A stretch of 64,000 nucleotides of DNA from an uncultured Gammaproteobacteria bacterium (lineage in GTDB: Bacteria > Patescibacteriota > Microgenomatia > UBA10105 > UBA927): positions 841-64,840 of the forward strand of contig CAYUKU010000003.1 in the NCBI GenBank assembly GCA_964445435.1. The letters run 5' to 3'. This document shows positions 3,935 through 59,456 of this stretch, piece after piece; the stretch's first letter is position 1; every line of letters starts with the position of its first letter. The translations under genes and the position numbers were made by a program. The notes under the pieces are model-generated. The model was not told where the DNA came from. It ran no database searches and worked only from the letters and a program-made list of their open reading frames with translations.

Positions 3935-5716
3935 TTACTTAACTAACCAACGTCTAAACACATTATACTCCATAGTGTTTACTACGTCATGTTTGGTCGC
4001 CCATCCGCGGCGCGCAACCGATACGCCATAGCGCATCAGGTCCATATGTTCAACCGCGTGCGCGTCAGTATCGATCGTGAACCGGAGTCCGCGTCTCACT
4101 GCATCATACACAAGCGTGTCTGGCAGGTCGAGCCGATCAGGATAAGCATTTATCTCAAGGGCGATATCGTGCTTCTTGGCCACCGCAAAAATTTCCGGCC
4201 AATTGGCGTCCACCCCTTCGCGGCTCCCCAGAAGTCTTCCCGTGGGATGTCCGAAAATACGTACCTTCGGGTGGTAACCAAGCGCTTTGGCGATCCGCTC
4301 TGTGACGGTTTTCCTTTCCTGGGTGAAACTCGAATGAATCGACACAACAACAGCGTCGACAAACTCAAATGCACTATCTGGAAGAGCCAGTTGACCGGTG
4401 GGCATGATATCCACCTCACACATCACAAACACGTGAACCGGTTTTTTGTGCTTGGCATTCCATGTGTCTTCCTCTTTCCGGTAAAACTCCAAACGTTTCT
4501 TCATAATACCGGTAATATCCGCTTCCGAATGATTAGACAACCGCGGATTATGGTCGCTGATGCCGATGTACTCATACCCCAGGCTTGCGGCTTTATCCAT
4601 ATGCGCCGAAAGCGGATTGGCGCCAAGATCATGGGATGATTTGAGATCATACGACGTATGCATATGAAGGTCGCCCTTGATATCCGAAAGTTCGAGAAGT
4701 TTAGGAAGTTTGCCTCTCTTGGCTGCTTCTATTTCCCCTTTGTCTTCCCGAATTTCGGGTGGAATGTACGGGAGGCCTACAATCTTATAGAATTCTTCCT
4801 CTGACGCCACTTCTCGCACTTTACCCGTTTTCGTATTTTTTATTCCGTGTTCATTGAGGGAAAGTCCTTTGGTGAGGGCCAGTTCACGCAGCTTGATGTT
4901 ATGATTCTTGCTTCCCGTAAAATATTGAAGCATCGCGCCGAAAGCCTGCGGCTTTTGCACCCGCATATCGACCTGCCGCCCGCTATGAAGCAGTAACGTC
5001 GCCCCGCTCGGGCCTTTCTCAACAAGTTTCTGATGAGGATACGTGAGGAAATGGTCTATTGCTTCCTTGGGTTTCGTAGTCGCAACCGCAATATCAACGT
5101 CACCTATTGTGGATACCTGACGTCTGAGACTTCCTAACACGTCAATGCGCGAGACTCCGGAAACCCGCTTCATGTGCGCGATAACTTCTTGCGCTATCGC
5201 ATCCGCGATGGGAAGCGGCATGCGAACTTCTTTTATTTGTCCTGCCCTGTATACGGCAATGGCTCCCAAAATATCCTCTTCGGATTTCTCCCCGAAACTT
5301 TCAATTTCAGCAATTTTATGCGCCTTTGCCATTTTTTCCAGGTCAGAAACGACAGTTTTGGGGTCTTTGAGCTTCAGGTGGGTGACGAGTTTGTAGGCTT
5401 TTTTGGGCCCGATCCCCGGGACAAGAAGAAGCGGGAACATGGACGCAGGAACTTTTTTCATGACGTCCTTGAAATGGCCTACCGTTCCCTTTCGGAACAA
5501 CTCATCGAGGTAATGAGCGATGCCTTGACCGACCCCGGGAATTTCGTTGAGCTTTCCGTCATCCCAGAGATCCTTCACGTCGCTCGTCAGATGTTCGATA
5601 CTATCGGCAGCGCGATCGTACGCGATTATCTTAAACCGATTCTCGCCTAACACCTGGTAAGCAGCGGAGACTTGCCGAAGGAGGGCAGCAAGCTCGAGAT
5701 TCGTCGCGGCTCTCAT
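3935..5716 (-). CDS. polX: Family X DNA polymerase (Pol beta-like core plus C-terminal PHP phosphoesterase domain)
   Basis: 593 aa. The N-terminal part has helix-hairpin-helix and Pol beta-like motifs ([23 protein letters not shown]). The C-terminal part has PHP-type histidine motifs (DLHMHTSYD..., ISDHNP). Confidence 0.8.
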
Positions 5717-11286: not shown

Positions 11287-12795
11287 TTATCCCAAGCTTT
11301 TCCGAAGCACCGCAGCCTGCACAAGCAGATCGCTCGTCAGATTGTTGCGGTCGAAACGGGTAACGATAAGGTCGACAAGTTCCTTATGCTCCAGTTCTTC
11401 ATTCGATTGAGGTGACAATTCAGCCCCCAGATATTCCTCTATGGCCGCCACATCTGCCTCAACTCCCGCAAGCTGTGCATGTGTGCGAGAGAGCTTCTTG
11501 AGTGATTTTCTGTTCAGAAACCTCCCTGCCCGCCGCATATCATCTTTGAGATTGATATACGTCTTCTCAAGAAGCGGCAGAATTCCTTTTTTCTTGGCTT
11601 CCTGAAGGCCTCTTCCGGTGCCAATGAGCTCCGGCGGAATTCCGAGTGAATACATCGCCCCGGTAAATCCGATCGCACGGGGAAGCGTCACTTTCCCCAC
11701 ACCACGGGAATATCCAAACAGTCCGACATGCTGCACGCGCTCCCGGCGCTTCGGCAACAAACTCGCCACATCGTTTATCACCGGCGCCAACTGTTCCACG
11801 GTCATGCGATAGGGCTCCTCAAAGGAGGTGAACACATCTCGAAGCGCCTCTTCCTGGTCTTGTCCTATCTGCTTCGCTGTCCCTCGAGGAAGAGAGGCGT
11901 GAAGTGTTTTGACTCCTTTCACCACATCGATGAACGGAAAATCATACCGAAACGCGCTTTGGATAAGTGCGGTTCTGACTCCTTGGTATTCGTTTGCGAA
12001 TTGTTCAACAGTTGCGGGCGTCAGGCCTCCGCGAAACGGAAGCGAAGCACTGCCAATAATGGGAAAAAGTTCAATCCCCGTTTGCTTGGTGAACTCACGG
12101 TACCGCGAAAGCGCAAGTTTGATCGCAACAACCGTGGGAACGATCCCGCTGTTGAGCGCCGGATCGCTTCGGGCGACGTACGGTCGTATATACTCAGGGA
12201 CAAAGCCAAAGGATTTTTCATGAAGCGATACGTACTCCCGAAGAATCTCATCAGACCGGGAAATCGTCTCAACGTTCTCGAAAAGCGGAATAATCTCGAT
12301 GTGCTTAATCGTATCGGTGGAGAAGTTATAAAGCGTATGTTTGAGAGACGCGATCTCCCGGAACGCTTCCTGAATCGCAATCATTTCCGAAGCAGTCTGT
12401 GTCATGGGAAGAATAACCTCAAAAAGCGGTGTGCTGTGAAGACCTACCTGCTTGGCGAGACTCGCCGCGGCCAAAATCCCCATGAATGCACGACCCAAAC
12501 GAAACTCTGTCTCTACCTTCGGATTGGGGAGCCGAAAGGTGATGAATTTCTCCTTCCCGAGCTGATGTTGGGCGAAGTAATCGAAATGTTCTCCCAACAG
12601 TTTCTCGACCACCGATTCATCTACGAATTTCCCTTCCCAGTCCCACTTGTATTCATCTATCCCAAGATCGCTGAACGTAAGAAAACACTCTTTCACTTCC
12701 TGCCTCGTGCTAACAAACTCCTTCGAGTGCCAATACGGTTTGCCCGCATGATCAGGGTGTTGCGAGGCCATTGTCGTGGGGATAATCCGCTTCAT
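11287..12795 (-). CDS. ppcA: Archaeal-type phosphoenolpyruvate carboxylase (PepcA)
   Basis: 502 aa. The N-terminus (IPTTMASQHPDHAGKPYW) and overall length match the roughly 500-aa archaeal-type PEPC family, not the roughly 900-aa bacterial Ppc. Confidence 0.7.
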   Translation of the reverse strand: MKRIIPTTMASQHPDHAGKPYWHSKEFVSTRQEVKECFLTFSDLGIDEYKWDWEGKFVDESVVEKLLGEHFDYFAQHQLGKEKFITFRLPNPKVETEFRLGRAFMGILAAASLAKQVGLHSTPLFEVILPMTQTASEMIAIQEAFREIASLKHTLYNFSTDTIKHIEIIPLFENVETISRSDEILREYVSLHEKSFGFVPEYIRPYVARSDPALNSGIVPTVVAIKLALSRYREFTKQTGIELFPIIGSASLPFRGGLTPATVEQFANEYQGVRTALIQSAFRYDFPFIDVVKGVKTLHASLPRGTAKQIGQDQEEALRDVFTSFEEPYRMTVEQLAPVINDVASLLPKRRERVQHVGLFGYSRGVGKVTLPRAIGFTGAMYSLGIPPELIGTGRGLQEAKKKGILPLLEKTYINLKDDMRRAGRFLNRKSLKKLSRTHAQLAGVEADVAAIEEYLGAELSPQSNEELEHKELVDLIVTRFDRNNLTSDLLVQAAVLRKSLG

Positions 12796-30255: not shown

Positions 30256-31347
30256 TCAAGATAGAGGCCCAATTGCAATGGCGCTCTGTTTAAGTTTTTC
30301 CCGTTGGAGCGACCACAAAATCCCAAATGCTATCGCAAGAGACAGAAGAGAGCTCCCCCCGTACGATACAAACGGAAGCGTAATGCCGGTTATGGGGATA
30401 ATGCCCATGTTCATGGCCGCGTTCACGAAAATCTGAACCACGAGCATCGCAAAAAGGCCAATCGAGTAAATAAACAGTCCCGGATCGCGCGCTTTACTGT
30501 CCACCAGGGGAGCAATAATACGGGTAAGCAGTGCGCCATAGAGAAATAAAAGCAGAATCCCTCCCACAAACCCCAATTCCTCGATAAGCGACGCGAAGAT
30601 GAAATCCGTATGATGCTCCGGCAGAAACCGCAGATGACTCTGGGTCCCCCTGCCAAGCCCGCGCCCGAAGAATTGGCCGCTTCCGACGGCGATCATGGCC
30701 TGGAGCGCATTATATCCGGCCCCCTTGGGGTCCAAGGCAGGATTAAGAAACGTGAGAATCCGATCTTTCTGATACGGCAGAAGTGCGTGCCACAACGCGG
30801 GGAAAGAGATGGCTCCCAGCCCGGCAACCGCAACGACAATGGCAACCGAGAGTCCGCCCGCAAGCATCATCGAAACCCAAAACGATCCGTAAATAATACT
30901 GCTTCCTAAATCGGGTTGCTTAAATACCAGCAAAAACGGGATGAGAAATAGAAGGACATGAAGCGGAATGTTTCTTAGATTCCTCGGACTGTATCTGGTC
31001 ATGAAATACGCAAACGCGAGGATGAAAAACGGCTTCGATAACTCGGAGGGTTGCAGTTGTACCCCTCCAATCATGATCCATCGTGTCGCTCCCCGGATGT
31101 TCGGGCCCAGATACGACAGAAGAAGAAATATATTCCCTATCACATATCCGTATGGGGCAAACCACCAAAACACCGCGTAATCCACCCGCGAGAAAAGATA
31201 CAGAAGAACCATCGCAAGCGCGAGAAACAATAACTGCTGCCAGAACGCTCCGACGCTGAGAGTAAGGAGTAAGAATAGTCCAAACGCGCAAAGGCACAAC
31301 AGAAGAAGAAGCGTTATCCAGTCGAAATGGTAAGCTCGTCTCCCCAT
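30256..31347 (-). CDS. rodA: SEDS-family peptidoglycan glycosyltransferase (RodA/FtsW-like)
   Basis: 363 aa with 10 TM helices and the SEDS C-terminal region (NMGIIPITGITLPFVSYGGSSLL). Confidence 0.75.
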   Translation of the reverse strand: MGRRAYHFDWITLLLLLCLCAFGLFLLLTLSVGAFWQQLLFLALAMVLLYLFSRVDYAVFWWFAPYGYVIGNIFLLLSYLGPNIRGATRWIMIGGVQLQPSELSKPFFILAFAYFMTRYSPRNLRNIPLHVLLFLIPFLLVFKQPDLGSSIIYGSFWVSMMLAGGLSVAIVVAVAGLGAISFPALWHALLPYQKDRILTFLNPALDPKGAGYNALQAMIAVGSGQFFGRGLGRGTQSHLRFLPEHHTDFIFASLIEELGFVGGILLLFLYGALLTRIIAPLVDSKARDPGLFIYSIGLFAMLVVQIFVNAAMNMGIIPITGITLPFVSYGGSSLLSLAIAFGILWSLQREKLKQSAIAIGPLS

Positions 31348-43273: not shown

Positions 43274-44512
43274 TCATGCGGCAGTGGATCCGAGCTCCCG
43301 TATATATTTTTGAAATAATTCGCCCTTTTCTTCGAAATTCTTCCAGATGCTATAGCTGGGCGACGCAGTCGAAAGTAAACAAATACGCCCGGGTTTTGTG
43401 TGTTGATACGCAAATGCCACGGCTTCTTTCATGTCGCGGGTCGTAATGATGCGAAATTTCCGCTTCGCATACTTGGCAAGAATCTCCCCTATGCGCACCC
43501 CCGAATCCGGAAAGAGAACGACATTTTCTATACTGCTTCTGTCTATCATGCGCACCAGCTCGTCAAACACATACCCGCGGTCCTGACCGCCCAAAAAAAT
43601 CGTCTGCACGCCATCGAGCGCTTCTATCGCAGATATAGTAGACTCCGGAGTCGTGGAAATTCCGTCGTCATAGAACAGGATTTCCTTGTACGTTCCTACG
43701 TGCTCCAACCTGTGTGGAAGCGGCCGAAACGCCATGATACTCTCGCGCATAATTGCAGGGGGCACACGGAAAAGATTTCCCACGGTTACCGCAGCCCGGA
43801 CATTATCGCGATTGTGTTTCCCTTTCAGCGGAATCTCCTCATCACGGCAAGGCAGTTTGTCTGTGTACGCAAGGGCATGCGCAGGCGTCTCTGAAGCGAG
43901 GATCCGCAGACGTTCAAATGAGGGATTATAGACAAGGTAATCTTCATTCATAAGAAATGAGGCTATTCTTTTTTTGGCTTGCCAGTAGGCTTCAACTGAT
44001 CCGTGATGATCCATGTGTTCCGGGAAGAAGCTCACGAAAACTGCAATATGGGGAGAATACTCGATATCTTCCAACTGGTAACTGGATAACTCATAGACAT
44101 ATATATCGTCCTTGTCCTTCTCCTGCAACAATTCGGTAAGCGCCGGGTTTCCGATGTTTCCGACAAGATGTGCACGCAGTCCCGCGTTTTTCAGTATTTC
44201 GTAAATGAGTGTCGTTGTTGTGCTTTTTCCCTTGGTGCCCGTGATACCGACAACCGTCCCTTTGGTATTTGCGAAAAACATGTTGGTCGCAGTCGTATAC
44301 GGGATCCGGACGAGGTCACGCCTGACACTGGGTGATCTTACGGCAATGTCATACCTATCCTGATTCGCCAGATAATTCTCGCCGTTTACTTTATCGGCTA
44401 TGTCGATAACCGCATCGGGATAATAGTGACGAAGATAGTTCAGGGTCGCTTTTCCCTCGATCCCCATGCCGATGAGGAGAATCTTCTTGTTGGCGAATTG
44501 CTGTATGTTCAT
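43274..44512 (-). CDS. murD: UDP-N-acetylmuramoylalanine--glutamate ligase (MurD)
   Basis: KILLIGMGIEGKATLNYL N-terminus and the Mur ligase P-loop GITGTKGKSTTTTLIYEIL. Confidence 0.85.
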   Translation of the reverse strand: MNIQQFANKKILLIGMGIEGKATLNYLRHYYPDAVIDIADKVNGENYLANQDRYDIAVRSPSVRRDLVRIPYTTATNMFFANTKGTVVGITGTKGKSTTTTLIYEILKNAGLRAHLVGNIGNPALTELLQEKDKDDIYVYELSSYQLEDIEYSPHIAVFVSFFPEHMDHHGSVEAYWQAKKRIASFLMNEDYLVYNPSFERLRILASETPAHALAYTDKLPCRDEEIPLKGKHNRDNVRAAVTVGNLFRVPPAIMRESIMAFRPLPHRLEHVGTYKEILFYDDGISTTPESTISAIEALDGVQTIFLGGQDRGYVFDELVRMIDRSSIENVVLFPDSGVRIGEILAKYAKRKFRIITTRDMKEAVAFAYQHTKPGRICLLSTASPSYSIWKNFEEKGELFQKYIRELGSTAA

Positions 44513-45825
44513 ACCGATCGTATTATTTCATCAAATTCCGGAGGAACGAAATGGTGAGGCGTGTAAGAATCAGCAGGGAGAGGTTTTAGCGAAACAGCTA
44601 AGCTGGCAACCACCGCATCTTGCGCAAACTCGCCGCGTTTCATAACCGCCATGAATGCAGACGTTGCCTCCTGGGGTGTCCCGACACACTCAAATGGCTT
44701 AAACCCTTCAAGGCCCAGCAGTTCCCGGTAGACCGGAAGAAGTGCGGTATCGTCAAGGAGATTCTTCCCGAAAATATCTACAACGGTCTCTCTCGGCAGG
44801 TATTCCGACAGAAGTAAAAATACAAACGCACACTTGGGACATGTGCCGCACCACTGTCCACGCCGCGGGTCTCCCGTAATTTTGAAATTCGTATTACAGC
44901 TTGTAAATGAATGGAAATACTGCGGATAGGAAGAAAATGTTCCCGTGATTTCCCGTTCGGTGAAAGGCCGAAGAAGGGAAAATAGGCCAAGATCCGGACT
45001 TATGTGTCTGTGCGCATGCGATGCAAACATGCTTTCGAATTCCAGCGACTTACTCCATTGGTGGTTCATTTCCTCGCCCAGGTATTCTACGTTTCCATAA
45101 TTTGCGCTTTCTTCGTTTGAGGCGATGACATATTGGAAATCATACAAGGCAGCCGCCAGCATACCTGTACACATGAATATGGACGTAATCGGTACATGAC
45201 CGTTGTACGTACCCGGTTGGGCATTAAGATCCATAAGTTTCGGGTCGATAGTCCGTTTCATAGTCAGGAGGGTAACACCCATTTGAGAAGCAACCGCCTC
45301 ATGAATGGGCGTCGGATTGAGTGTAAAAAGAGCGAAATTTTTCCTGTGTTTCTTAAGGAGCTCTCCGGTCACGATAGAGTCCTTCCCCGCCCCCAAAAGA
45401 ACCAGACTCCGGGATGAAAATTTGACCCTGCCGGGTGACAAGGGAGACGTTTCTCCGTCTGAAGGGAATGAAACAAGCCCGCGAAAGTCAATCGTATTGC
45501 GATAGAAAAACTCCCCCAATCCCTTCGTATACAGTATCCGGAAAAACTCCGCCTCGGAAGAGGCAAGAGAATAAGAAACGGTGATGTCCCGCGGGCAAAA
45601 AGTTTTCCAGTAGCTTATGCCCAACAGAAGATGCAACTGTCGCGCGATCCGCTCGGCAAGAAGCTCGCGCTCCTGTCCGATAGAACCATCAGGAGGACGA
45701 AACGCGATCCGTTCAGTAAAAAGAATCTGTTTGTCACCATGCGTTAGTTCATATGAACATGAAAGCGATCCTCCCTGAATATCCAGTCCGTACGAAGAAA
45801 AAACGAAGCGCGTTTGTTTGGTCAT
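44509..45825 (-). CDS. QueC/ExsB-like PP-loop ATP pyrophosphatase-fold protein with a C-terminal CxxCxxC cluster, embedded between mraY and murD (candidate MurL-type epimerase; function unproven)
   Basis: PP-loop-like LVLLGAGKDS (compare SGGxDS) and the Cys cluster WCGTCPKCAF. The ORF is open to 45912, but the ATG at 45825 forms an ATGA overlap with the mraY stop. It is an unusual dcw-cluster member. Confidence 0.5.
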   Translation of the reverse strand: MTKQTRFVFSSYGLDIQGGSLSCSYELTHGDKQILFTERIAFRPPDGSIGQERELLAERIARQLHLLLGISYWKTFCPRDITVSYSLASSEAEFFRILYTKGLGEFFYRNTIDFRGLVSFPSDGETSPLSPGRVKFSSRSLVLLGAGKDSIVTGELLKKHRKNFALFTLNPTPIHEAVASQMGVTLLTMKRTIDPKLMDLNAQPGTYNGHVPITSIFMCTGMLAAALYDFQYVIASNEESANYGNVEYLGEEMNHQWSKSLEFESMFASHAHRHISPDLGLFSLLRPFTEREITGTFSSYPQYFHSFTSCNTNFKITGDPRRGQWCGTCPKCAFVFLLLSEYLPRETVVDIFGKNLLDDTALLPVYRELLGLEGFKPFECVGTPQEATSAFMAVMKRGEFAQDAVVASLAVSLKPLPADSYTPHHFVPPEFDEIIRSV

Positions 45826-46859
45826 ACTTTCAGAATCGAAAGCCATAACCCAAAAATCGCAAACACCACGCTCAGTATCCAGAAACGCATGACGATTTTT
45901 GGCTCTGGCCATCCCTTATGTTGGAGCCATAGATGAAGAGGCGCTGCCGAGAAAAGTTTCCGCCCGAAGTATTGCTTCCAGAAAAGCTGCAAAAACGACG
46001 AGGCGACCTCAATGACAAAAATCCCCCCTATAATGACCAATGCTGGTGCTTTCCCAAGGATAAGCGCTACTACGGCAAGGGTCGCGCCAAATGAAAGCGC
46101 TCCTACATCGCCCAAGAAAATGCGTGCGGGGAAGACGTTGAAGTACATAAATGCAAGTAGTCCCCCAAGCCAGAGGGCGATAAATACAGAAAGCGGAGAA
46201 TCAAGAATTGAAGCAGAAATCACCCAAAACGCGACAAGAGAAACCAAAAGCACCCCGGATGCCAGTCCGTCCAACCCGTCTGTGATGTTATAGGCGTTCG
46301 CAAACGCGATAATGACCAGGATTGCCATGAGCACGTAGACCCATCCCATATGGATGATCCCAACAAACGGGATGTAAAAAATATCTATTTTAAGATCATG
46401 TACGAGCCAGAACCCGATAATGGAGGCAAGCATAATCTCGAATATGAGCTTATGCCGGAGCCGCAACCCGAAAAAACCGGAACTGGCAAGCATGAATGTC
46501 TTCTTCGCATCGTCGAGAAGCCCCAGGATGCCAAATGACAGAAACGTGAATAACAATATCTTTATTTCGCTCATCATGGGATACACGGAGGTAATCGGTA
46601 TCCAAAAATATTTCATGATAAGCATGGTGAGCGGAAACAGGAGCGTGACAAGAACGATAATCAAAAGTCCTCCACCCACCGGGGTTCCTGCCTTTTTCTG
46701 ATGGAATCGGTCAAATATGGGCGTCCTCTTATCAAACGCGTCTAATGTTTTTTGTTTCAGACGCTGGAAGCGCCACCGATACAGAAGCTGGATAAAGGGT
46801 ACGTAGAGAAGACTTGTGAAAAACCAGGAAAATAATAGTAAACCGAGTAAAAATCCCAT
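45822..46859 (-). CDS. mraY: Phospho-N-acetylmuramoyl-pentapeptide transferase (MraY)
   Basis: 10-TM protein with the conserved DDxxD-type region (GLLDDAKK) and the NAYNITDGLDGL motif. Confidence 0.9.
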   Translation of the reverse strand: MGFLLGLLLFSWFFTSLLYVPFIQLLYRWRFQRLKQKTLDAFDKRTPIFDRFHQKKAGTPVGGGLLIIVLVTLLFPLTMLIMKYFWIPITSVYPMMSEIKILLFTFLSFGILGLLDDAKKTFMLASSGFFGLRLRHKLIFEIMLASIIGFWLVHDLKIDIFYIPFVGIIHMGWVYVLMAILVIIAFANAYNITDGLDGLASGVLLVSLVAFWVISASILDSPLSVFIALWLGGLLAFMYFNVFPARIFLGDVGALSFGATLAVVALILGKAPALVIIGGIFVIEVASSFLQLFWKQYFGRKLFSAAPLHLWLQHKGWPEPKIVMRFWILSVVFAIFGLWLSILKV

Positions 46860-46867
46860 ATGAAAAC

Positions 46868-47242
46868 TTACCAGCCCATCTCAACCACGAGGTAGGGTCC
46901 GAAAATGAAAAAAGCAACAAGAACCGCGCCAAAGGCGACGGTGAGCATCATTCCGGCCGAGACGTCTTTGGCAATTTTTGCCTGCGTTTTCCACTCAGTG
47001 GTAATCAGATCTGTCATGGATTCAAGGGCCGTATTTATCATCTCGCCTGCAAGTCCCAGGAGAATGGTAAATACGATGATCGCTTTCTCAACTGATGTGA
47101 TGTCGAAATAATAGCTCAAATAGAGAGCAAAAACTGACAATACGAGGTGAACACGAAAATTCGGTTGCGTGCGTACGGCCCAGAGAATTCCTGCAAAAGC
47201 GTTTTTGAAGGAAATATGATGCTGGCGCAGCGTCTTCATCAT
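46868..47242 (-). CDS. dgkA: Diacylglycerol kinase / undecaprenol kinase (DgkA family)
   Basis: Three TM helices and the GEMINTALESMTD motif. The ORF track extends to 47341; the probable start is MMKTLRQ at about 47242. Confidence 0.7.
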   Translation of the reverse strand: MMKTLRQHHISFKNAFAGILWAVRTQPNFRVHLVLSVFALYLSYYFDITSVEKAIIVFTILLGLAGEMINTALESMTDLITTEWKTQAKIAKDVSAGMMLTVAFGAVLVAFFIFGPYLVVEMGW

Positions 47243-47288
47243 ACGTGGTACTGTAAGTATAGGTGAATGGCCCCAAAAACTCAAACAA

Positions 47289-48299
47289 CTAGTAGCCGCG
47301 CCGAAGGGTGCGCAGGGACTCAACCACGTACGGAATGCCATACCAGAGCGTCAATGGGAGGTCGTGGGCGTGAACATAGTTGACTTCACGGCCTCCGAAG
47401 CCCGTTTTGAACAACGTTATTCCCCTCCACGGATGATTTGGCTTGTCTTCAGGCGCTATTCCATAAAAATTGTACACTTTCATTCCTCTATTTTTTGCTT
47501 CCTGAATTGCTTCCCACTGAACCAGATGCGACACGGGGACGCGACTTGCAATTGAAGCTCCGTGGTGATAAATCGCCTCATTTGAGAGAAAAAGAACGAT
47601 CGCTCCGGCTACGAGTTTCTTCCCGTCATACCCAAGAAGAAGCACTGACTTTCCTGCTTTTGAAAATATCTCAAACTCCTCCGCAATGGATATGTGCCCT
47701 ACAAATCCGTGGCGCTTTGAGGTTTCTTCATAGAGACGGAAAAAATGTTTGAGCGCATCCGGATCGGTCGTTTTTCGCACCTCGACTCCTGCCTTCTGGG
47801 CAACTCTGATTTCATACCGAGTAGTCTTTCGCATGCCCATAAGGAGCTCTTCATCTGATTTTTCCAGATCCAATACCCAACAGCGCTCAGCGTCCACCTC
47901 ATGAATCGGCGCCCTTACGAGTTTCAGTTTCCGTAGTAATTCCATATTCTCCTTCGTATTGGCAAGAAGGGGGCTCACCCGGACAAACCATGCCAGCTCA
48001 CGGCGCGCGATAGGCGCTAACAGCTCGAGAAATTCCCGCCAATGGGCAACTCCATTGTGTTTCCACACCGGCCCGTGCCGGACATGAAGAAACGCCCCCC
48101 GCCGTGCCCGAACGACAAATATCTGTGCTACACCCACGACGTCTCTGCCCTCTGAAATAAGATATCTCAGTACCCGTTGACCGGATTTCTTCTGAACTTC
48201 GCCCCACAACCAACTTTGGAATAGAGCTTGAGGACAGTACGTTTCCAAAAACTTCTCCCAGACGTGCTCGTCATTCGCGTTTTCAAGGGTAAGACTCAT
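47289..48299 (-). CDS. FemAB-family peptidoglycan interpeptide-bridge aminoacyltransferase
   Basis: 336 aa with the FemABX signature LFKTGFGG in the C-terminal GNAT-like domain. Confidence 0.7.
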   Translation of the reverse strand: MSLTLENANDEHVWEKFLETYCPQALFQSWLWGEVQKKSGQRVLRYLISEGRDVVGVAQIFVVRARRGAFLHVRHGPVWKHNGVAHWREFLELLAPIARRELAWFVRVSPLLANTKENMELLRKLKLVRAPIHEVDAERCWVLDLEKSDEELLMGMRKTTRYEIRVAQKAGVEVRKTTDPDALKHFFRLYEETSKRHGFVGHISIAEEFEIFSKAGKSVLLLGYDGKKLVAGAIVLFLSNEAIYHHGASIASRVPVSHLVQWEAIQEAKNRGMKVYNFYGIAPEDKPNHPWRGITLFKTGFGGREVNYVHAHDLPLTLWYGIPYVVESLRTLRRGY

Positions 48300-48937
48300 G
48301 GATGTATTGTATGGTATTCTTTTTCGTTTTTCACTGTTGTCGGCTCGCCATGCCCGGGATAGATAACAGTATCATCGGGTAGATGCAATATGTCTGAAAG
48401 TGACTCGGATAGCTTCTTCGAATCGGAATACGAAAAATCCGCCCTCCCTAAGGCACCCCCCGCAAACACCGTATCGCCGCTTATAAGTGCGTGGGCCTCT
48501 TTGATATAAAAACACACGCTTCCCGGGGTGTGCCCGGGCGTCTCCATGACATGAACGTGAATTTTTCCGAGCATACGTGCATCGTTTTTTGCCAAAAATC
48601 CTCCTATGGCCGGCGGTCTCTCCACTATCGTCCTTCCCAAAAAGTGCGAGGCAGTTTCACTCATCCGTGCCACGAGAAATCGGTCTTTTTCGTGGATGAA
48701 AAACGGGATTCCAAGCGTGAGACTCAACTCGTGGGCAGCCATAATATGATCGAAATGTCCATGTGTCGCCCAGAGCGCCATGGGCTTCCCTCCGTCTCGC
48801 AGCGCATGATCGGCGACATACGAAGCGTCTTCTCCCGGATCGACAATGATGACCGATCCCGTTCGAATGTCCCGGAGAAGGTAACAGTTTGCGGCCATCT
48901 GACCTACGGTTAGCGTTTCGATTGAAATATCGCTCAT
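48296..48937 (-). CDS. MBL-fold metallo-hydrolase
   Basis: HxHxDH motif (ATHGHFDHIMAAHE). Confidence 0.75.
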   Translation of the reverse strand: MSDISIETLTVGQMAANCYLLRDIRTGSVIIVDPGEDASYVADHALRDGGKPMALWATHGHFDHIMAAHELSLTLGIPFFIHEKDRFLVARMSETASHFLGRTIVERPPAIGGFLAKNDARMLGKIHVHVMETPGHTPGSVCFYIKEAHALISGDTVFAGGALGRADFSYSDSKKLSESLSDILHLPDDTVIYPGHGEPTTVKNEKEYHTIHP

Positions 48938-50166
48938 GCGGAAACTTCCCGAATAATCCGTTCTGCGTCGCGTTTCGATATTCGGGTCGGTAAATTGACG
49001 ATGCGAGGAGAGATATCTTCAGCATTTGGACATGTTCCCTTCTTGTAAAAAATGCTTGAGAAAACAACCCCCTTCGGGTCGATAACATTGTAGTACCAAT
49101 TTCCCAGAATCAGCCCCTGATGTTTCGCTCGGGACAGTACTCTTGCCGGCACATCTACAAGTATCGGAAACCGAAGATACGAAGCGCCGGGTCTGGATGC
49201 AAGAAGCGTCACGCCCTTGGCACCCTTCAGTTTTTGGCGGTACAAATCGGCAATTTCCTTCCGGACTGCCGTATACCGATCAAGTTTTTTCAGTTGATTT
49301 ATAAGAAGTGCTGCAAGCCCGTTGGGGTATTTCCGAGGAAAAACGGAGGGTCGCTGCGCGCGTTTCTCCTCCGGATACACCGGAAATCCCAACCAGCCGA
49401 TACGCTGGAAAATCCACAGCATCAGCTTGCCTACGCCAAGCTGATACCATGGGAGGATAAACGAAAACGCGATGGGATGGAACATCTGTTGTGCGATCCA
49501 AAATCCCGTGGGATACGGAATGCTGCCATGAAGCTCTTTCAGTCTTCGAAAGACCGCGGGGTGGGTCTCTGAAACAGCGGCCAAACCACCAAAGACACTT
49601 GACACCACCTTATCGCGCCCGAAACTGAAAATGGCCCCGTCACTCAAAGTTCCGACTTTCCTGCCTTCATAGGTCGCTCCAAGGCTGTGTGCACAATCCT
49701 CGATCACGACAAGGTTGTTTTTCCGGGCAAATGCCGATATCCTATTCATGTCCGCCGGTACACCAAACGTGTGCTGCACGATGATCGCTTTTGTCTTCCG
49801 AGAAACTTTCTTTGGGAGATCAGAAGGATCGAGATTCAGCGTCTCGTCTATGTCGACATATACCGGCTTGGCTCCGGCCCAGATGACGCTATTGGCCACT
49901 GCCACACATGTAAACGCCTGAATAAGCACCTCGTCGCCGACGCCAATGCCAAATGCGCGAAGCAACAGAAAGAGCGCGGATCGCCCGCTGTTGAATGTCA
50001 GCACTTGGCTGTTACCAAGATATTTGGCGAACCACCGTTCGGCTGTTAAGCGCGCAGGGCCCATAACCCATCGCCTGGGAGAAAAAAACATGCGAAGGGC
50101 TACCCAGACATCATCACGTTCGCTATTGGGTGAAAGCGACCCAGAGACTACATTCGGCGATATCAT
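48934..50166 (-). CDS. DegT/DnrJ/EryC1/StrS-family PLP-dependent sugar aminotransferase
   Basis: Fold type I aminotransferase pattern with a probable catalytic Lys in SFGRDKVVS. Confidence 0.7.
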   Translation of the reverse strand: MISPNVVSGSLSPNSERDDVWVALRMFFSPRRWVMGPARLTAERWFAKYLGNSQVLTFNSGRSALFLLLRAFGIGVGDEVLIQAFTCVAVANSVIWAGAKPVYVDIDETLNLDPSDLPKKVSRKTKAIIVQHTFGVPADMNRISAFARKNNLVVIEDCAHSLGATYEGRKVGTLSDGAIFSFGRDKVVSSVFGGLAAVSETHPAVFRRLKELHGSIPYPTGFWIAQQMFHPIAFSFILPWYQLGVGKLMLWIFQRIGWLGFPVYPEEKRAQRPSVFPRKYPNGLAALLINQLKKLDRYTAVRKEIADLYRQKLKGAKGVTLLASRPGASYLRFPILVDVPARVLSRAKHQGLILGNWYYNVIDPKGVVFSSIFYKKGTCPNAEDISPRIVNLPTRISKRDAERIIREVSA

Positions 50167-51608
50167 ACGAGTAATTGTAGCACGGCGGCGGCCTGTTTCC
50201 CTTTGAAGAGAACGGTATCTCCTTTTCGTACCGTTTTGCGGATATGCTCTGCGGCTGCCTTTGGAGAAAGGACTAAAACGCCCATTTTGCCTGAGTATGC
50301 CTCAAAAACTTCCCTATAACTGTCATTGGTAAGAATAATCTCTGAAATTGTCTGTGACGCAAGTCTCGCAACATCCTCGTGACTGCTTTGAGCGTACTGT
50401 CCGAGCTCTATCATCGGTTGGAATACCATGATTCTTCTGCCTCGACGTGTTCCCAGATACAGAAGGGCAGCTTTTGCTGCGTCGGGATTGTTATTGAACG
50501 TATCATCGATAAATTGTGCCTGGTTGACACCCGGAACCGGAACCATGGTGCGCGTCACAGGAGTAATATGCCGGCACGCCTGGATAATTTCATCCAGGGT
50601 CATCCCGCATGCACGCGCAGCGGCAATAGTCGCCAGAGTATTGGAGACATGGTGTGTCCCCACGAGTGGAATTGAAACGGTTGCGGTCTCGTTCTTGGTT
50701 TTCAGTGTAAACGTGAGCGCATTGCCTTTCAAGACCGGCGAGACCCCGACATAAAGACATTCTTTCGCGAAAGACGTATTCGTGGTGTAGCCTATGACTT
50801 TTGTCCCCGACCCCTCCGCTTTTTGAGCCATCCGACGGACGAATTCATTATCGTAATTCATGATAGCAATGCCGTCATCGGTAAGTCCTTCGACTAATTC
50901 GTACTTCGCCTGAATCGTATTTTCCAGACTTCCGAACAAATCCTGATGCTGTGCGTTTACGGCGGTAACAATCCCGATCGTTGGCCGAACCATCTTTGCC
51001 ATGTATGCGATTTCACCTTTCTTATAGGCGCCCATTTCTACAATAAAGACTTCACAGTCAGGGGAAAGTTGCGCTAACACCACCTCTGCGATCGCAATGG
51101 GGGAATTTTTGCTGGCCTTCGTCGTAAGGACGCGATACTTCCGGGAAAGCACGGTACCAAGCATTTCTTTGGTAGAAGTTTTCCCGTAACTGCCGGTTAT
51201 TCCGATGACGATCATCGGTCTGTGCGCCCGAAGTTTTGTCACAGCCATGCGTATAAGGATCGCATGATATATCGCAGTGGGGAGTTTGAGCGCAGTAACC
51301 AAAACTGACACGACCGGAAACGTCAACGCATCAACCGCAAGAAGTCTAACGAAGAGCGATCCGGGAATACTCATCCCCAGGAAAACAAGGAAAGCAACAC
51401 TGAAAACTCCAAGCACTATCGTCTTCGGCGTAATCGAAGGCCGTCGTAAGGGCGGAAACAAAATCGACCCACCCTGCGGGCTTCGCAGGTGGATAAGCAT
51501 CCTGTCCCACCGGTATTCTTTCAAATACCAGAGACTTATGTATGCCAGAATGTTGAGAAAAATCCGTATCGCCCAAAAGGCGCCAAGAATGATAGAAAAA
51601 ATATTCAT
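50163..51608 (-). CDS. murF: UDP-N-acetylmuramoyl-tripeptide--D-alanyl-D-alanine ligase (MurF) with an N-terminal triple-TM extension of about 120 aa
   Basis: Mur ligase P-loop IGITGSYGKTSTKEML and the MurF signature DDTFNNNP. The first about 120 aa are hydrophobic helices (IILGAFWAIRIFLNILAYISLWY...) that replace the usual N-domain. Confidence 0.8.
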   Translation of the reverse strand: MNIFSIILGAFWAIRIFLNILAYISLWYLKEYRWDRMLIHLRSPQGGSILFPPLRRPSITPKTIVLGVFSVAFLVFLGMSIPGSLFVRLLAVDALTFPVVSVLVTALKLPTAIYHAILIRMAVTKLRAHRPMIVIGITGSYGKTSTKEMLGTVLSRKYRVLTTKASKNSPIAIAEVVLAQLSPDCEVFIVEMGAYKKGEIAYMAKMVRPTIGIVTAVNAQHQDLFGSLENTIQAKYELVEGLTDDGIAIMNYDNEFVRRMAQKAEGSGTKVIGYTTNTSFAKECLYVGVSPVLKGNALTFTLKTKNETATVSIPLVGTHHVSNTLATIAAARACGMTLDEIIQACRHITPVTRTMVPVPGVNQAQFIDDTFNNNPDAAKAALLYLGTRRGRRIMVFQPMIELGQYAQSSHEDVARLASQTISEIILTNDSYREVFEAYSGKMGVLVLSPKAAAEHIRKTVRKGDTVLFKGKQAAAVLQLLV

Positions 51609-52333
51609 ATCTTTTTCAAAAAGGGTTCAATATGAGATATGAATGTCGCCGGATCCTTAAACGGCACTCCATGATCGCGGTCTGCTATCACGACAAGCTG
51701 CGACCCTCGGATGCGCTCGTGCATTTTTCGTGCAATCCACACAGGAGTAATTTGATCCAGACTCCCCCACACCAAGAGACACGGGACAGCAACACGTGCC
51801 ATGGTCGGCGTGAGATCCTCCTGTACGATAAGTTTAAACGTTTCACGCATTACCCCTTCGGCACGATAAAATTCGCGCGCACCGACAAGCCAGTAATACC
51901 AAAGCCGGATTTTCTCTTGAAGGAGGCTAAACGGCCACAAGGAAAAGAAAAACTTCCCCACCTTTGCCAAAAGTATGAACACCATCAGTTTCTTCCTCGG
52001 CACGGGTGTAAACCCGGGCGTACCGGTTAGCACTAACGCCCTGAGCTCTTTCGGAGTGTCCATGCAGTATTTGAGCGATACTCTGCCTCCGAATGAATGA
52101 CCGATGAGAACCACGTCATTGAGTTTGTTCTTGCGGATATACATTTTCAGAAACTCAACATAGTGAGAAAGCGAATACGGTATAGGCGGAGCTGAGGCCT
52201 CTCCAAACCCGGGAAAGTCAGGGACAAACACGTTGTATCCTTTTTTTCGCAGTGCAGCTCCAAGTACTTCGAAACGCTTGGACGACAATCCCCATCCGTG
52301 CAAGATAACGATAGCAGGACGCAATTTTTTCAT
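51605..52333 (-). CDS. Alpha/beta hydrolase
   Basis: GxSxG nucleophile elbow (LIGHSFGGRVSL) and the conserved His near the C-terminus. Confidence 0.7.
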   Translation of the reverse strand: MKKLRPAIVILHGWGLSSKRFEVLGAALRKKGYNVFVPDFPGFGEASAPPIPYSLSHYVEFLKMYIRKNKLNDVVLIGHSFGGRVSLKYCMDTPKELRALVLTGTPGFTPVPRKKLMVFILLAKVGKFFFSLWPFSLLQEKIRLWYYWLVGAREFYRAEGVMRETFKLIVQEDLTPTMARVAVPCLLVWGSLDQITPVWIARKMHERIRGSQLVVIADRDHGVPFKDPATFISHIEPFLKKI

Positions 52334-56115: not shown

Positions 56116-57543
56116 TTATATGCGTGACCGCAGCCTATCTATCGTATCTTTTTCCCAACTGTATATGCTTCCTGCTCCCATAAAAACGACGACACTGTGT
56201 TTCTCCTGGACGTTTTGTAAAAATGAAATCACATCTTCTTTCCCCGGTGTGAAAAACACGTGCTGGTGATTTTTTCGGATTTCCTCACAGAGCATTCCTC
56301 CGGTTATCTCGTGTGTATCTCTTTCGCGAGCAGAAGCGTAAATGTCAGTGCACAGCACTATATCCGCATTCTCGAACGCCCGGCCAAACTGTGAAAAAAG
56401 CGCTTTCGTCCTAGAGTACGTATGTGCTTGGAAAACCGCGATAATCGTCTCTTTGGGATACCACAATCTGGCAGCAGTCAGTGTGGCAATAATTTCTCTC
56501 GGGTGATGCGCATAATCATCATAGAACGTCATGGTGTCGGTCTGTCCTAATTTTTCGAAGCGTCGCTTAGCCCCGCCAAATGCTGCAAGTGCACGTTTAC
56601 TTATCTCCCACGGCACACCCAGTGAAAATGCAGCGACGCACGCCGCCGCAGCGTTTGCCATATTGTGCGCTCCGGGAACCTGCAGCTTAATGGAGATGGG
56701 GTCTTTTTCATTGTGCATCAGTGTAAAAGTGCTTGCCCCCGCGGAAAACTGTTCGTCTGTTATGCGAAAATCAGCCCGCTGATTGCGTCCATACGTTATA
56801 ACGATTCGCGAGGAGTTCTTTGTGAGAATTTCGCTTGCAGGATCGTCGGCGTTTACCACCGTTATTCCCTTGGGAGGTTGGTTCATCTGAAGCTTGAGAA
56901 ACGCTTTTTTGACAGCGGCAAGCGTCGGATATACGTCCGGATGATCAAAGTCGATATTGGTTACCACAAGAATCTCCGGCGTTTGCCAAAGAAAACGGGG
57001 TGTCGCGTCGTGGGCCGGATCAGTGACATATTCGTCGGCCTCCGCAACGAAAAAATCCCCCTCCCCGAAGTGTCCGGGAAACCCGAGTCCGCCAATCACG
57101 CCGGATCCAATGGCATACGAGGGATCACCTCCAGCTTCCCGCAAAATGGCAGCAATCATCGCGCTTGTCGTTGTCTTCCCGTGGCTTCCGGCAACAGAAA
57201 TCTGTCTTTTGCCAGCCATCGCGTATCCCAGGGCCTTCCCATGGGGAAATGCCGGTATGCCCAAACGCCGAGCCTCAATAACTTCTGGGTTGTCCCGTCC
57301 GTGGTGAGCTCCCGTGTAGATAACGATATCCGGCTTCGCTTGTGCGATATGGGACGCATCGAAACCCACAAACGGCACGATATTCACTTCCCTGAGAATC
57401 GGATCGCTCGGAAACTCCTCTTCGACATCGGATCCCGTTACGGCAATACCCCTCTCCTTCGCCCAAACCGAAAGCGCCGCCATGGCAATTCCCTTGATAC
57501 CGACGAAATGAATACGTTTGACTGAATGGAAATTCATGTCCAT
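56116..57543 (-). CDS. murC: UDP-N-acetylmuramate--L-alanine ligase (MurC)
   Basis: IHFVGIKGIAMAALSVWAKERGIAVTGSD N-terminus and the Mur ligase P-loop. Confidence 0.9.
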   Translation of the reverse strand: MDMNFHSVKRIHFVGIKGIAMAALSVWAKERGIAVTGSDVEEEFPSDPILREVNIVPFVGFDASHIAQAKPDIVIYTGAHHGRDNPEVIEARRLGIPAFPHGKALGYAMAGKRQISVAGSHGKTTTSAMIAAILREAGGDPSYAIGSGVIGGLGFPGHFGEGDFFVAEADEYVTDPAHDATPRFLWQTPEILVVTNIDFDHPDVYPTLAAVKKAFLKLQMNQPPKGITVVNADDPASEILTKNSSRIVITYGRNQRADFRITDEQFSAGASTFTLMHNEKDPISIKLQVPGAHNMANAAAACVAAFSLGVPWEISKRALAAFGGAKRRFEKLGQTDTMTFYDDYAHHPREIIATLTAARLWYPKETIIAVFQAHTYSRTKALFSQFGRAFENADIVLCTDIYASARERDTHEITGGMLCEEIRKNHQHVFFTPGKEDVISFLQNVQEKHSVVVFMGAGSIYSWEKDTIDRLRSRI

Positions 57544-57546
57544 AGA

Positions 57547-58272
57547 TTATTGTACTGCCATAACGGCAAGGATTTCTCCGAACGTGCTTTCACTATCTTT
57601 TCGAAACGAAAAAAATCGATCGTTCTGGCAGGAAGTACACACGGGCGGACTATCAATCTGGCTTGCGGTAATGCCAGACCCAAGAAGTTCCAGACGATTG
57701 ACGTATCCTATATCAAGATGCCAGCCGTCATCCATTTTCGATGCGACCCGTTCATCCTTTTGGTATTCGTTCAAGAAGAGCTTTGCGCGATCCTCTGAAA
57801 CACTATAGCAACACATTCCGATATGCGGCCCTATGGAAACCCGGATGTTGGCGGCATTACTTCCCAGATCTATCATAGTCTGGAGCGTTTTTTTTGCGAT
57901 TCCGGCAATCGTACCTTTCCACCCTGCATGAGCTACTGCAAATATGTGTTTTTTCGTGTCCAAAAGAAGAAGCGGCACACAATCCGCAACGATTACTCCT
58001 ATTGATACTCCCTCCCGTCGGTCAACCACCAGTGCGTCAGCTTCTGATACTCTATTGGCGTGCGCGTCATCAATTACCTCTACGCGTGACCCGTGTACCT
58101 GATTTGCCATAACGAGCCGATCGGGATCCAAATGGAGACGCTTAAGAAACGCCCTGCGCGCGTCAAAACGACGCATATCTCCCGCATTCCGAAGCGAATA
58201 TGCGTGCATCAGTGCACTCTCGCGGGCAAGAAGACTTGATTGTATATACGCGTGATCGTTTGATATGAACAT
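57547..58272 (-). CDS. pgeF: YfiH/PgeF-family protein (DUF152, multicopper polyphenol oxidase-like; peptidoglycan editing factor / purine nucleoside phosphorylase)
   Basis: Conserved HAGWKGT and the Cys/His cluster typical of the family. Confidence 0.75.
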   Translation of the reverse strand: MFISNDHAYIQSSLLARESALMHAYSLRNAGDMRRFDARRAFLKRLHLDPDRLVMANQVHGSRVEVIDDAHANRVSEADALVVDRREGVSIGVIVADCVPLLLLDTKKHIFAVAHAGWKGTIAGIAKKTLQTMIDLGSNAANIRVSIGPHIGMCCYSVSEDRAKLFLNEYQKDERVASKMDDGWHLDIGYVNRLELLGSGITASQIDSPPVCTSCQNDRFFSFRKDSESTFGEILAVMAVQ

Positions 58273-58274
58273 GA

Positions 58275-59456
58275 TTACGAGCGCAACTTCCCCAAAAGTC
58301 TAATTGCCTCTTTGCGATCGTTCCAGGGGTATTCCGTCGTTCCGCGGCACAGACTCTGTTCATGGCCTTTTCCGGTGATGATAACCAAATCGCCCGGTTT
58401 GGCAACCGAAAATGCGTATTTAATGGCATCCTTTCTGTTTGGGTATCTGTGCATTTCAACGTCGGAATCGATACCTCGCGCTATGTCATCCATTATCTTC
58501 TCCACGCTCTCGGTACGATAATCTTCTTCGGTCAGGACGATGATATCGTCATAGGCGCTTGCCGCCTTTCCCATGAGAGGACGCTTGCTGTGATCTCTCA
58601 GCCCCGCGCTTCCGAAAACGTGAATCAGGCGCTTCTTAGTCATCTTGCGAGCCGTGCGAAGCGCCCGATCAAGTGCGTTGGGCGTGTGGGCGAAATCAAC
58701 AATGACGGTAAACGGAGACGTCGTAACCACGTCCATCCGCCCGGTCACTCCCGAAAAATCCAAAAGCGCCTCTCTGATGGTTTTTGGGGGTATCTCAAGC
58801 GCGCTGGCAACTGCGATGGCAGCAAGACAATTGTATCGGTTAAACTCTCCGGGAAGTTTAGTTTTGAAGGGGAATGTTTTGGGAGTCACCTTCGCCTCAC
58901 GGCGAATGCCATATGTTATGATCCTTTTCCCCCGATGAAGAACCCTCATCGCTTCACTGTACAGCTGTGCCTCATCGCGATTGAGAACGACGATGTCGCT
59001 TCGTGTAAGGAGGGATAATTTCGTTTTCAGGTACCTGGCAAACGTCTTATGCCAGTCGAGATGCTCGTGTGTTACGTTCGTGATAACGCCCACGGCAAAA
59101 GGGATTCCGAAAACCCGATGCTGCGCAAGACCATGTGACGTCACCTCAAGCACCATGTGCGTATCACCGCGGTCTACCGCATCTCGAAGATATTTCTGCA
59201 CCCAGTATGCATTGGGCGTTGTCACATGGAACCCTGTGTCATACGATTTCCCACCGATGACCGCATGAACGGAAGAAATCATCGACACCTTTCGGCCGGA
59301 GGCCTTAAGAATTTCGTAAATAAGCGTCGTGGTCGTGGTTTTCCCATCGGTTCCCGTGACTCCTATTACCGTCAACTTCCGTCCCGGGAAACCAAAACGC
59401 ACGACGGCAAAGCAGGCGATGAGAAGATGGTACAGGCTTTTCAACAAGCCGATCAT
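58275..59456 (-). CDS. murE: Mur ligase family protein, MurE-like, lacking the N-terminal domain
   Basis: P-loop IGVTGTDGKTTTTTLIYEIL, the DFAHTP motif and the KRPLMG region. At 393 aa it is about 100 aa shorter than canonical MurE. Confidence 0.7.
   Translation of the reverse strand: MIGLLKSLYHLLIACFAVVRFGFPGRKLTVIGVTGTDGKTTTTTLIYEILKASGRKVSMISSVHAVIGGKSYDTGFHVTTPNAYWVQKYLRDAVDRGDTHMVLEVTSHGLAQHRVFGIPFAVGVITNVTHEHLDWHKTFARYLKTKLSLLTRSDIVVLNRDEAQLYSEAMRVLHRGKRIITYGIRREAKVTPKTFPFKTKLPGEFNRYNCLAAIAVASALEIPPKTIREALLDFSGVTGRMDVVTTSPFTVIVDFAHTPNALDRALRTARKMTKKRLIHVFGSAGLRDHSKRPLMGKAASAYDDIIVLTEEDYRTESVEKIMDDIARGIDSDVEMHRYPNRKDAIKYAFSVAKPGDLVIITGKGHEQSLCRGTTEYPWNDRKEAIRLLGKLRS

Follow-up and report, generated by a model that had tools for sequence, protein, structure and literature searches.

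We analyzed a window of 64,000 nucleotides (contig CAYUKU010000003.1, positions 841 to 64,840, of assembly GCA_964445435.1, titled as an uncultured Gammaproteobacteria bacterium), whose division and cell wall (dcw) cluster contains, between mraY and murD, an open reading frame (ORF) for a relative of MurL, the UDP-N-acetyl-alpha-D-muramoyl-L-alanyl-L-glutamate epimerase. Together with the MurD2-type ligase encoded by the adjacent murD gene, this protein, for which epimerase activity is predicted, very probably provides the stem peptide of peptidoglycan with its D-glutamate (D-Glu) by a route that bypasses free D-glutamate. With appreciably less confidence, we also favor a broader picture in which MurD2/MurL is a main D-Glu route in much of the Patescibacteria (CPR, for candidate phyla radiation) and occurs in Acidobacteria too, often as a bifunctional MurL-MurD polypeptide, and in which MurL is a QueC-like PP-loop adenylating enzyme with a Cys4 metal site. 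The MurL family, the MurD2/MurL pathway and the gene pair are already known (Feng et al. 2017, as covered by two reviews, of 2018 and 2021; PMC5808125, PMC8788868), and models or names for MurL exist in Pfam, NCBIfam and JGI. What goes beyond these two reviews is the very wide occurrence of the family in Patescibacteria-type genomes and its presence in Thermoanaerobaculia, the MurL-MurD fusions and the predicted QueC-like PP-loop/Cys4 fold. No literature on MurL in CPR/Patescibacteria, on MurL-MurD fusions or on such a fold was found in the searchable library, which is incomplete, and no priority is claimed.

Homology to MurL and conserved motifs

The initial annotation had proposed MurL from gene context and motifs, and direct homology now supports that assignment. 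In the profile comparison with MurL that it had suggested, the protein matches the NCBIfam model of the Xanthomonadales MurL family, NF041275, over nearly its full length (E=3.9e-108, 361.8 bits, about half the equivalog cutoff; residues 4-415 align with positions 7-414 of the 447-position model), and this is its sole NCBIfam match at E<=1. The local copy of Pfam-A gave no match to the protein; however, precomputed annotation places the Pfam domains MurL_N and MurL_epimerase_C on homologues that are 97% and 58% identical to it and that have the same gene order as in the window. A search of a large protein database returned 2306 relatives at E<=1e-5, and the two domains (PF26299 and PF26298, respectively) are precomputed on all of the best 120 of them. 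In addition, the protein is 39% identical over 414 residues to a proteobacterial member of the family (P0263), and every family motif is common to both. Judged by its sequence, the ORF product is thus a clear relative of MurL, an enzyme family already known. The gene and the motifs of its product are located as follows.

44509..45825, minus strand: murL-like coding sequence, 438 amino acids plus stop (ORF and translation)
45822..45825, minus strand: ATGA in which the mraY stop overlaps the start of murL (read from the sequence)
44509..44512, minus strand: ATGA in which the murL stop overlaps the start of murD (read from the sequence)
45376..45399, minus strand: LLGAGKDS (residues 143-150; family consensus GGGKDS), PP-loop-like by conservation and by alignment to TtuA and QueC
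45190..45207, minus strand: YNGHVP, which offers candidate active-site residues with a presumed catalytic role (N208, G209, H210 and P212 are almost invariant)
45049..45066, minus strand: NHQWSK (residues 254-259), invariant across the MurL family
44884..44901, minus strand: SCNTNF, containing C310, the first of four cluster cysteines
44824..44853, minus strand: WCGTCPKCAF (residues 325-334), a CxxCxxC motif with C326, C329 and C332
44668..44700, minus strand: KPFECVGTPQE, containing a fifth conserved cysteine, C380 (198 of 199 homologues); a speculative acid/base residue

Both the placement of the gene and its overlap with mraY had been read correctly in the initial annotation: the murL ATG occupies positions 45825-45823 and the mraY stop codon TGA positions 45824-45822, and a second ATGA joins murL to murD. 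Because of these overlaps with mraY and murD, murL is translationally coupled on both sides. The in-frame ORF extends further, from 45912, but homologues start at the Met at 45825; M1 is invariant in alignment A1, and the called homologous genes encode 438-441 residues. A chance ORF is ruled out by the conservation of motifs among homologues.

The protein appears to consist of an N-terminal MurL_N domain, a central QueC-like PP-loop domain and a C-terminal helical region. LLGAGKDS and WCGTCPKCAF, the two motifs to which attention had first been drawn, are both conserved in homologues. In an alignment of 199 MurL homologues, on which all conservation counts are based, each of G145, G147, K148, D149 and S150 is kept in 194-198 sequences, and each of C310, C326, C329 and C332 in 196-197. 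These four cysteines form a putative Cys4 metal site of zinc type. Two of the 199 homologues replace all four jointly (C310S, C326D, C329S and C332T) and retain the PP-loop; such concerted loss is the pattern expected for ligands of a single metal site, and it suggests that the site has a structural role and can disappear as a whole.

The partner ligase and its linkage to murL

The gene directly downstream encodes a MurD that matches the NCBIfam model of D-glutamate ligases. Its residues at the positions that discriminate MurD2 from MurD, a comparison that had been proposed together with the MurL assignment, are given below; E. coli (Escherichia coli) numbering was set on the K-12 sequence, in which crystal numbers are one lower than gene positions.

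43274..44512, minus strand: murD (TIGR01087, 242 bits, above cutoff; Mur_ligase_M and Mur_ligase_C)
44009..44029, minus strand: FFPEHMD in MurD, with E165 at the position of E. coli D182 and of E197 in Xanthomonas oryzae MurD2
43571..43591, minus strand: GGQDRGY in MurD, with R312 at the position of E. coli K348 and of R358 in X. oryzae MurD2

E. coli D182: E165 in the window MurD; E in 64 and D in 13 of 77 MurL-linked MurDs
E. coli K319: I285 in the window MurD; never Lys in the 77
E. coli K348: R312 in the window MurD; R in all 77
E. coli A414: P385 in the window MurD; P in 64 of the 77
E. coli L416: Y387 in the window MurD; Y or F in 76 of the 77

X. oryzae MurD2 adds L-Glu, and its E197, R358, P433 and F435 stand for D182, K348, A414 and L416 of the E. 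coli enzyme; the E197D/R358K double mutant turns MurD2 to D-Glu, and K319T allows E. coli MurD to accept L-Glu (PMC8788868). The window MurD has both Glu at the D182 position and Arg at the K348 position. It also shares Pro at the P433 position with MurD2, and differs at F435 in having Tyr, which is aromatic as well. All five residues are identical in the MurL-linked MurD of a proteobacterial locus (L085). The ligase therefore carries the MurD2 signature and, by its residues, is of the L-Glu-adding type. Two further features set it apart: its N-terminal domain is shorter than that of E. coli MurD or of the proteobacterial MurD2-like protein, and, unlike X. oryzae MurD2, it is encoded at the usual place of murD within the dcw cluster.

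The linkage of the two genes was examined in a collection holding one genome per species, which was scanned with a pattern around NHQWSK (NHQWSK[ST]xE). At least 600 matches were obtained, of which at least 590 (not de-duplicated by genome) were confirmed as relatives; the closest among the matches listed is 63% identical to the window protein. The best 80 of these loci, of which 78 were analyzed for linkage, come almost entirely from metagenome-assembled genomes of Patescibacteria type, including Levybacteria, Roizmanbacteria, Microgenomates, Peribacteria/Peregrinibacteria, Taylorbacteria, Wildermuthbacteria, Moranbacteria and others. In 76 of the 78, murD comes directly after murL and in the same orientation; the two exceptions (L009 and L028) are both at contig ends. 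The pair is found between mraY or ftsI and ftsW, or away from dcw genes. Within the window it is part of the dcw operon, whereas the non-CPR locus L085 is a separate two-gene locus; a MurD2-type ligase directly downstream of MurL is likewise the arrangement in X. oryzae, whose MurL is related to the window protein by the full-length NF041275 match and by the Pfam domains of its close homologues.

Seven of the 78 loci carry MurL and MurD as a single ORF of 837-975 residues, at these positions.

L026, 5692-8619: MurL-MurD fusion
L032, 4083-6725: MurL-MurD fusion
L043, 4733-7378: MurL-MurD fusion
L047, 5986-8514: MurL-MurD fusion
L073, 5983-8586: MurL-MurD fusion
L075, 5980-8493: MurL-MurD fusion
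L078, 5980-8496: MurL-MurD fusion

An exhaustive HMMER search over 1.84 billion cluster representatives (50% identity) identified 2650 relatives with E<=1e-3, of which 1193 had E<=1e-30. Fusions with MurL at the N-terminus and MurD at the C-terminus account for 20 of the best 150 representatives (P0127, P0256 and 18 others), two of which were confirmed with NCBIfam; loci and representatives together, the natural fusions span 795-975 residues. The invariant adjacency and the repeated fusions are strong comparative evidence that MurL and MurD catalyze consecutive steps. Several of the fused ligases (e.g., those of L026, L047 and L073) have Asp, not Glu, at the position of E. coli D182.

Relatives of MurL were also found in Thermoanaerobaculia (Acidobacteria). 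The published distribution comprises rare actinobacteria and some members of the Gamma- and Alphaproteobacteria, together with weakly related proteins from cyanobacteria, one fungus and one amoeba, and does not list Patescibacteria/CPR (PMC5808125, PMC8788868). The window host, which by the names of its nearest relatives looks like a member of Patescibacteria/CPR, falls outside it, and Patescibacteria-type genomes carry the family much more widely than the reviews report. Many of the loci (L002, L004, L005, L006, L011-L013 and others) are titled 'uncultured Gammaproteobacteria bacterium'. Their gene order is that of Patescibacteria-titled records, and identity to the window proteins reaches 90% for MraY and 77% for MurD; the taxonomy in these titles seems to be wrong or a placeholder.

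Predicted fold, proposed chemistry and competing explanations

An AlphaFold model of the MurL-like protein, built from a 40-sequence alignment, was confident (mean predicted local distance difference test score 90.5, predicted template modeling (TM) score 0.91). Its best Foldseek matches in PDB are all PP-loop proteins, namely Cap9 (a CBASS protein that resembles QueC), QueC, TtuA, MJ0690, MnmA, argininosuccinate synthase, GMP synthetase and ThiI; the QueC structures of two species (2pg3 and 3bl5) align over 220-238 columns with target-normalized TM scores of 0.64-0.67. GxGKDS lies between the first strand (137-143) and a helix (148-159) of the predicted domain. With the motif following the first beta-strand of a Rossmann-like domain and the fold similar to members of solved structure, the central domain of the model is that of a PP-loop ATP pyrophosphatase. 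A PDB sequence search with the single protein gave nothing meaningful, and a profile search gave a marginal alignment of the LLGAGKDS region with the PP-loop SGGKDS of TtuA (E 0.017). When the family alignment was compared with E. coli QueC by hhalign, LLGAGKDS was placed on SGGQDS, but the probability (6%) was not significant. Sequence, profile and Foldseek searches of PDB identified no MurL structure.

The earlier description of the protein as a QueC-like PP-loop enzyme is therefore upheld for the fold and weakly for the sequence, and fails if read as orthology to QueC. Likenesses to QueC, Cap9 and other PP-loop enzymes include the predicted fold of the central domain and the position of the PP-loop between the first strand and helix. 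QueC has a C-x8-C-x2-C-x2-C arrangement that resembles the MurL Cys cluster and whose relative distance from the PP-loop is the same, and the E. coli enzyme has T-C-Y-N-G before CxxCxxC, comparable to SCNTNF in MurL. By contrast, the first Ser of the QueC-type PP-loop SGGxDS is replaced by Gly in GxGKDS, and MurL has an extra N-terminal domain of ~130 residues and a C-terminal region of ~90 residues.

PP-loop enzymes adenylate a substrate oxygen with release of pyrophosphate (PPi), and QueC adenylates a carboxylate. This carboxylate or carbonyl-oxygen adenylation, which yields AMP, is akin to the chemistry proposed for MurL, although the substrate of MurL is UDP-muramyl dipeptide and the outcome epimerization, while QueC-type enzymes form an amide or nitrile. 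X. oryzae MurL consumes one ATP with formation of AMP and acts in the L-to-D direction only; its discoverers proposed adenylation of the alpha-carboxylate, yet described a protein that 'lacks known conserved domains' (PMC5808125, PMC8788868). An adenylating PP-loop fold had been suggested to fit such AMP-forming chemistry, and the predicted fold does match PP-loop ATP pyrophosphatases. If correct, the PP-loop assignment would thus supply the missing structural rationale for an AMP-forming, one-way MurL reaction.

In the proposed route, MurC would make UDP-N-acetylmuramoyl-L-alanine (UDP-MurNAc-L-Ala), to which the window MurD would add L-Glu. MurL would then bind ATP at the GxGKDS PP-loop and adenylate what is presumably the alpha-carboxylate of the terminal L-Glu, with PPi leaving; the acidified alpha-proton would be lost, reprotonation would take place from the opposite face, and hydrolysis would follow. 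The catalytic core would be the QueC-like PP-loop domain with its Cys4 site (the metal being probably zinc), flanked by the family-specific N-terminal domain and the C-terminal helical region. Candidates for acid/base residues are the invariant H210, H255, K259, E262, E264 and C380, and any choice among them is speculation. MurI, which also provides peptidoglycan D-Glu, is unrelated to MurL in sequence and fold; this two-cysteine racemase requires neither a cofactor nor ATP and works reversibly on free glutamate.

Several points weigh against the assignment of the window genes to the MurD2/MurL route. The NF041275 score falls well below the equivalog cutoff of 700 bits, which is tuned to Xanthomonadales, so that strict orthology to MurL is not established by this cutoff. 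MurL activity is known for the enzymes of X. oryzae, Micromonospora and Salinispora only, with no member from Patescibacteria, and Arg at the K348 position also occurs in the D-Glu-specific MurD of Streptococcus mutans (PMC8788868). The PP-loop assignment is drawn from a predicted structure, and the links of the sequence to QueC and TtuA are weak. Moreover, the 13 Asp-bearing ligases among the 77 MurL-linked MurDs include fused ones, so the Glu signature is not an absolute marker. Finally, murI or a D-amino-acid aminotransferase may be present elsewhere in the genome, beyond the 64-kb window, and the title of a cited paper reports glutamate racemase activity in a CPR bacterium, Candidatus Saccharimonas aalborgensis. 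With regard to the cutoff, the proteobacterial P0263, encoded at a Gram-negative locus (LptD, SurA) with MurD directly downstream, also scores below it (549 bits); the value of 700 bits therefore marks a narrow clade and not the whole family. When a true Xanthomonadales MurL was sought among high-GC-like representatives, none reached 700 bits, and P0263 was the best.

Three other explanations were considered. According to the first, which we regard as improbable, the MurL-like enzyme adenylates the same alpha-carboxylate and passes it to ammonia or another nucleophile, giving iso-glutamine or another modification with no inversion. The structural relatives QueC and GMP synthetase do couple adenylation to attack by a nitrogen nucleophile (Foldseek and general knowledge), and an identity of ~39% to proteobacterial MurL with a score below the equivalog cutoff is compatible with a changed outcome. 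However, all family-invariant motifs are common to the proteobacterial member, a ligase with L-Glu-type residues would deprive the cell of D-Glu if no epimerase were at work, and no glutaminase or ammonia-donor gene is linked to murL, murD alone being so. MurT/GatD make iso-glutamine by a different route.

A little less probable still is that the window MurD is an ordinary D-Glu ligase fed by MurI encoded elsewhere, and that the MurL-like protein is accessory or redundant in the cell wall. The TIGR01087 match above its cutoff (murD, D-glutamate ligase) would agree with this, as would the Asp found at the D182 position in some MurL-linked MurDs. Pfam scans identified no Asp/Glu racemase (murI), ddl-encoded D-Ala-D-Ala ligase or alanine racemase (alr) in the 64-kb window, in line with the earlier statement on murI and ddl, and no class-IV aminotransferase (D-amino-acid aminotransferase; Pfam, ORFs >=120 residues); these searches cover the window and not the whole genome, which leaves room for a distant murI. 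Nevertheless, TIGR01087 would not separate MurD2 from MurD (the Xanthomonas MurD2, XOO_1320, was itself annotated as MurD), the window MurD has both switch residues, E and R, and the strict adjacency of murL and murD with repeated fusions argues for consecutive steps. The last explanation, a QueC orthologue or tRNA-modifying PP-loop enzyme placed in the dcw cluster by chance, shares the PP-loop fold and a CxxCxxC like that of QueC, but is very improbable given the lack of any QueC or tRNA-thiolase match in Pfam and NCBIfam, the length of 438 residues with extra domains against 231 for QueC, the hhalign result, the absence of queD, queE and queF from the 64-kb window and the linkage everywhere to murD. 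The comparison with QueC that had been proposed thus came out negative, and QueC orthology is effectively refuted.

The surrounding cell-wall cluster and consequences for annotation

The surroundings of the gene pair were annotated by Pfam and NCBIfam scans of essentially every ORF of >=120 residues. A single long minus-strand cell-wall and division cluster was observed, in the order mraZ, rsmH, a gene for an ftsI-type penicillin-binding protein, murE, pgeF, murC, murB, murA, a glmU-like gene, an alpha/beta hydrolase gene, murF, genes for a DegT-family aminotransferase, a metallo-beta-lactamase (MBL)-fold hydrolase, a FemAB-family protein and a diacylglycerol-kinase-family protein, mraY, the murL-like ORF, murD, ftsW, murG, an ORF at the ftsQ position (with no Pfam match), ftsA and ftsZ. 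Three of these genes are located as follows.

45822..46859, minus strand: mraY (Glycos_transf_4, E=4.7e-30), immediately upstream of murL in the same operon
56116..57543, minus strand: murC (TIGR01082, 401 bits, above cutoff), the preceding step, which supplies UDP-MurNAc-L-Ala
58275..59456, minus strand: murE (TIGR01085, 386 bits, above cutoff)

Two Mur ligases are unusual. The murE product has 393 residues only, its match to the MurE model begins at model position 73, and Pfam gives no N-terminal Mur_ligase domain; the cause may be a wrongly called start or a genuine lack of the domain. The murF-like ligase (50163-51608, minus strand, 481 residues) matches the NCBIfam MurF model only from residue 124 and scores 245.7 bits against a cutoff of 288.6, and several apparent hydrophobic membrane helices in its first ~125 residues replace the usual MurF N-terminal domain.

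Between murF and mraY lies a block (46868-50166, minus strand) encoding a DegT/PseC-like sugar aminotransferase, the MBL-fold hydrolase, a FemAB-family transferase and the diacylglycerol-kinase-family protein. Its order is conserved in four other loci (L003, L004, L006 and L083) and mostly in a fifth (L035), which lacks the MBL gene. Together with the alpha/beta hydrolase gene between glmU and murF (51605-52333, minus strand), the block suggests a lineage-specific modification of the wall precursor. The peptidoglycan editing factor gene pgeF (57547-58272, minus strand; Cu-oxidase_4; TIGR00726 above cutoff) is located between murE and murC. Outside the dcw cluster, a second FtsW/RodA-family gene (30256-31347, minus strand) adjoins a class-I aminoacyl-tRNA synthetase gene (Pfam tRNA-synt_1), and the window also encodes an archaeal-type phosphoenolpyruvate carboxylase (PEPcase_2, E=7e-134; 11287-12795, minus strand) and a PHP-domain-containing DNA polymerase of family X (3935-5716, minus strand).

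Database names of MurL relatives are not uniform: some are named epimerase by JGI, whereas NCBI gives 'hypothetical' or 'endonuclease domain-containing protein'. Four representatives from Patescibacteria and Thermoanaerobaculia (P0050, P0273, P0276 and P0282) bear the latter name at NCBI, while members of the same clusters are epimerases at JGI; the endonuclease name is probably a propagated misannotation. The window MurD, for its part, would be labeled a D-glutamate ligase by annotation pipelines. As a result of such misannotation of MurL and MurD, metabolic reconstructions of these small genomes may count D-Glu supply as absent and mistakenly conclude that the cell depends on a host.

The scale on which the family was found here (at least 590 confirmed stretches and 1193 clusters at E<=1e-30) contradicts the published picture of a few genera, and so wide a spread of MurL weakens the idea of MurD2/MurL inhibitors as narrow-spectrum agents. 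In addition, the MurL-MurD fusions and the PP-loop/Cys4 assignment offer testable handles on a mechanism that reviews call unclear.

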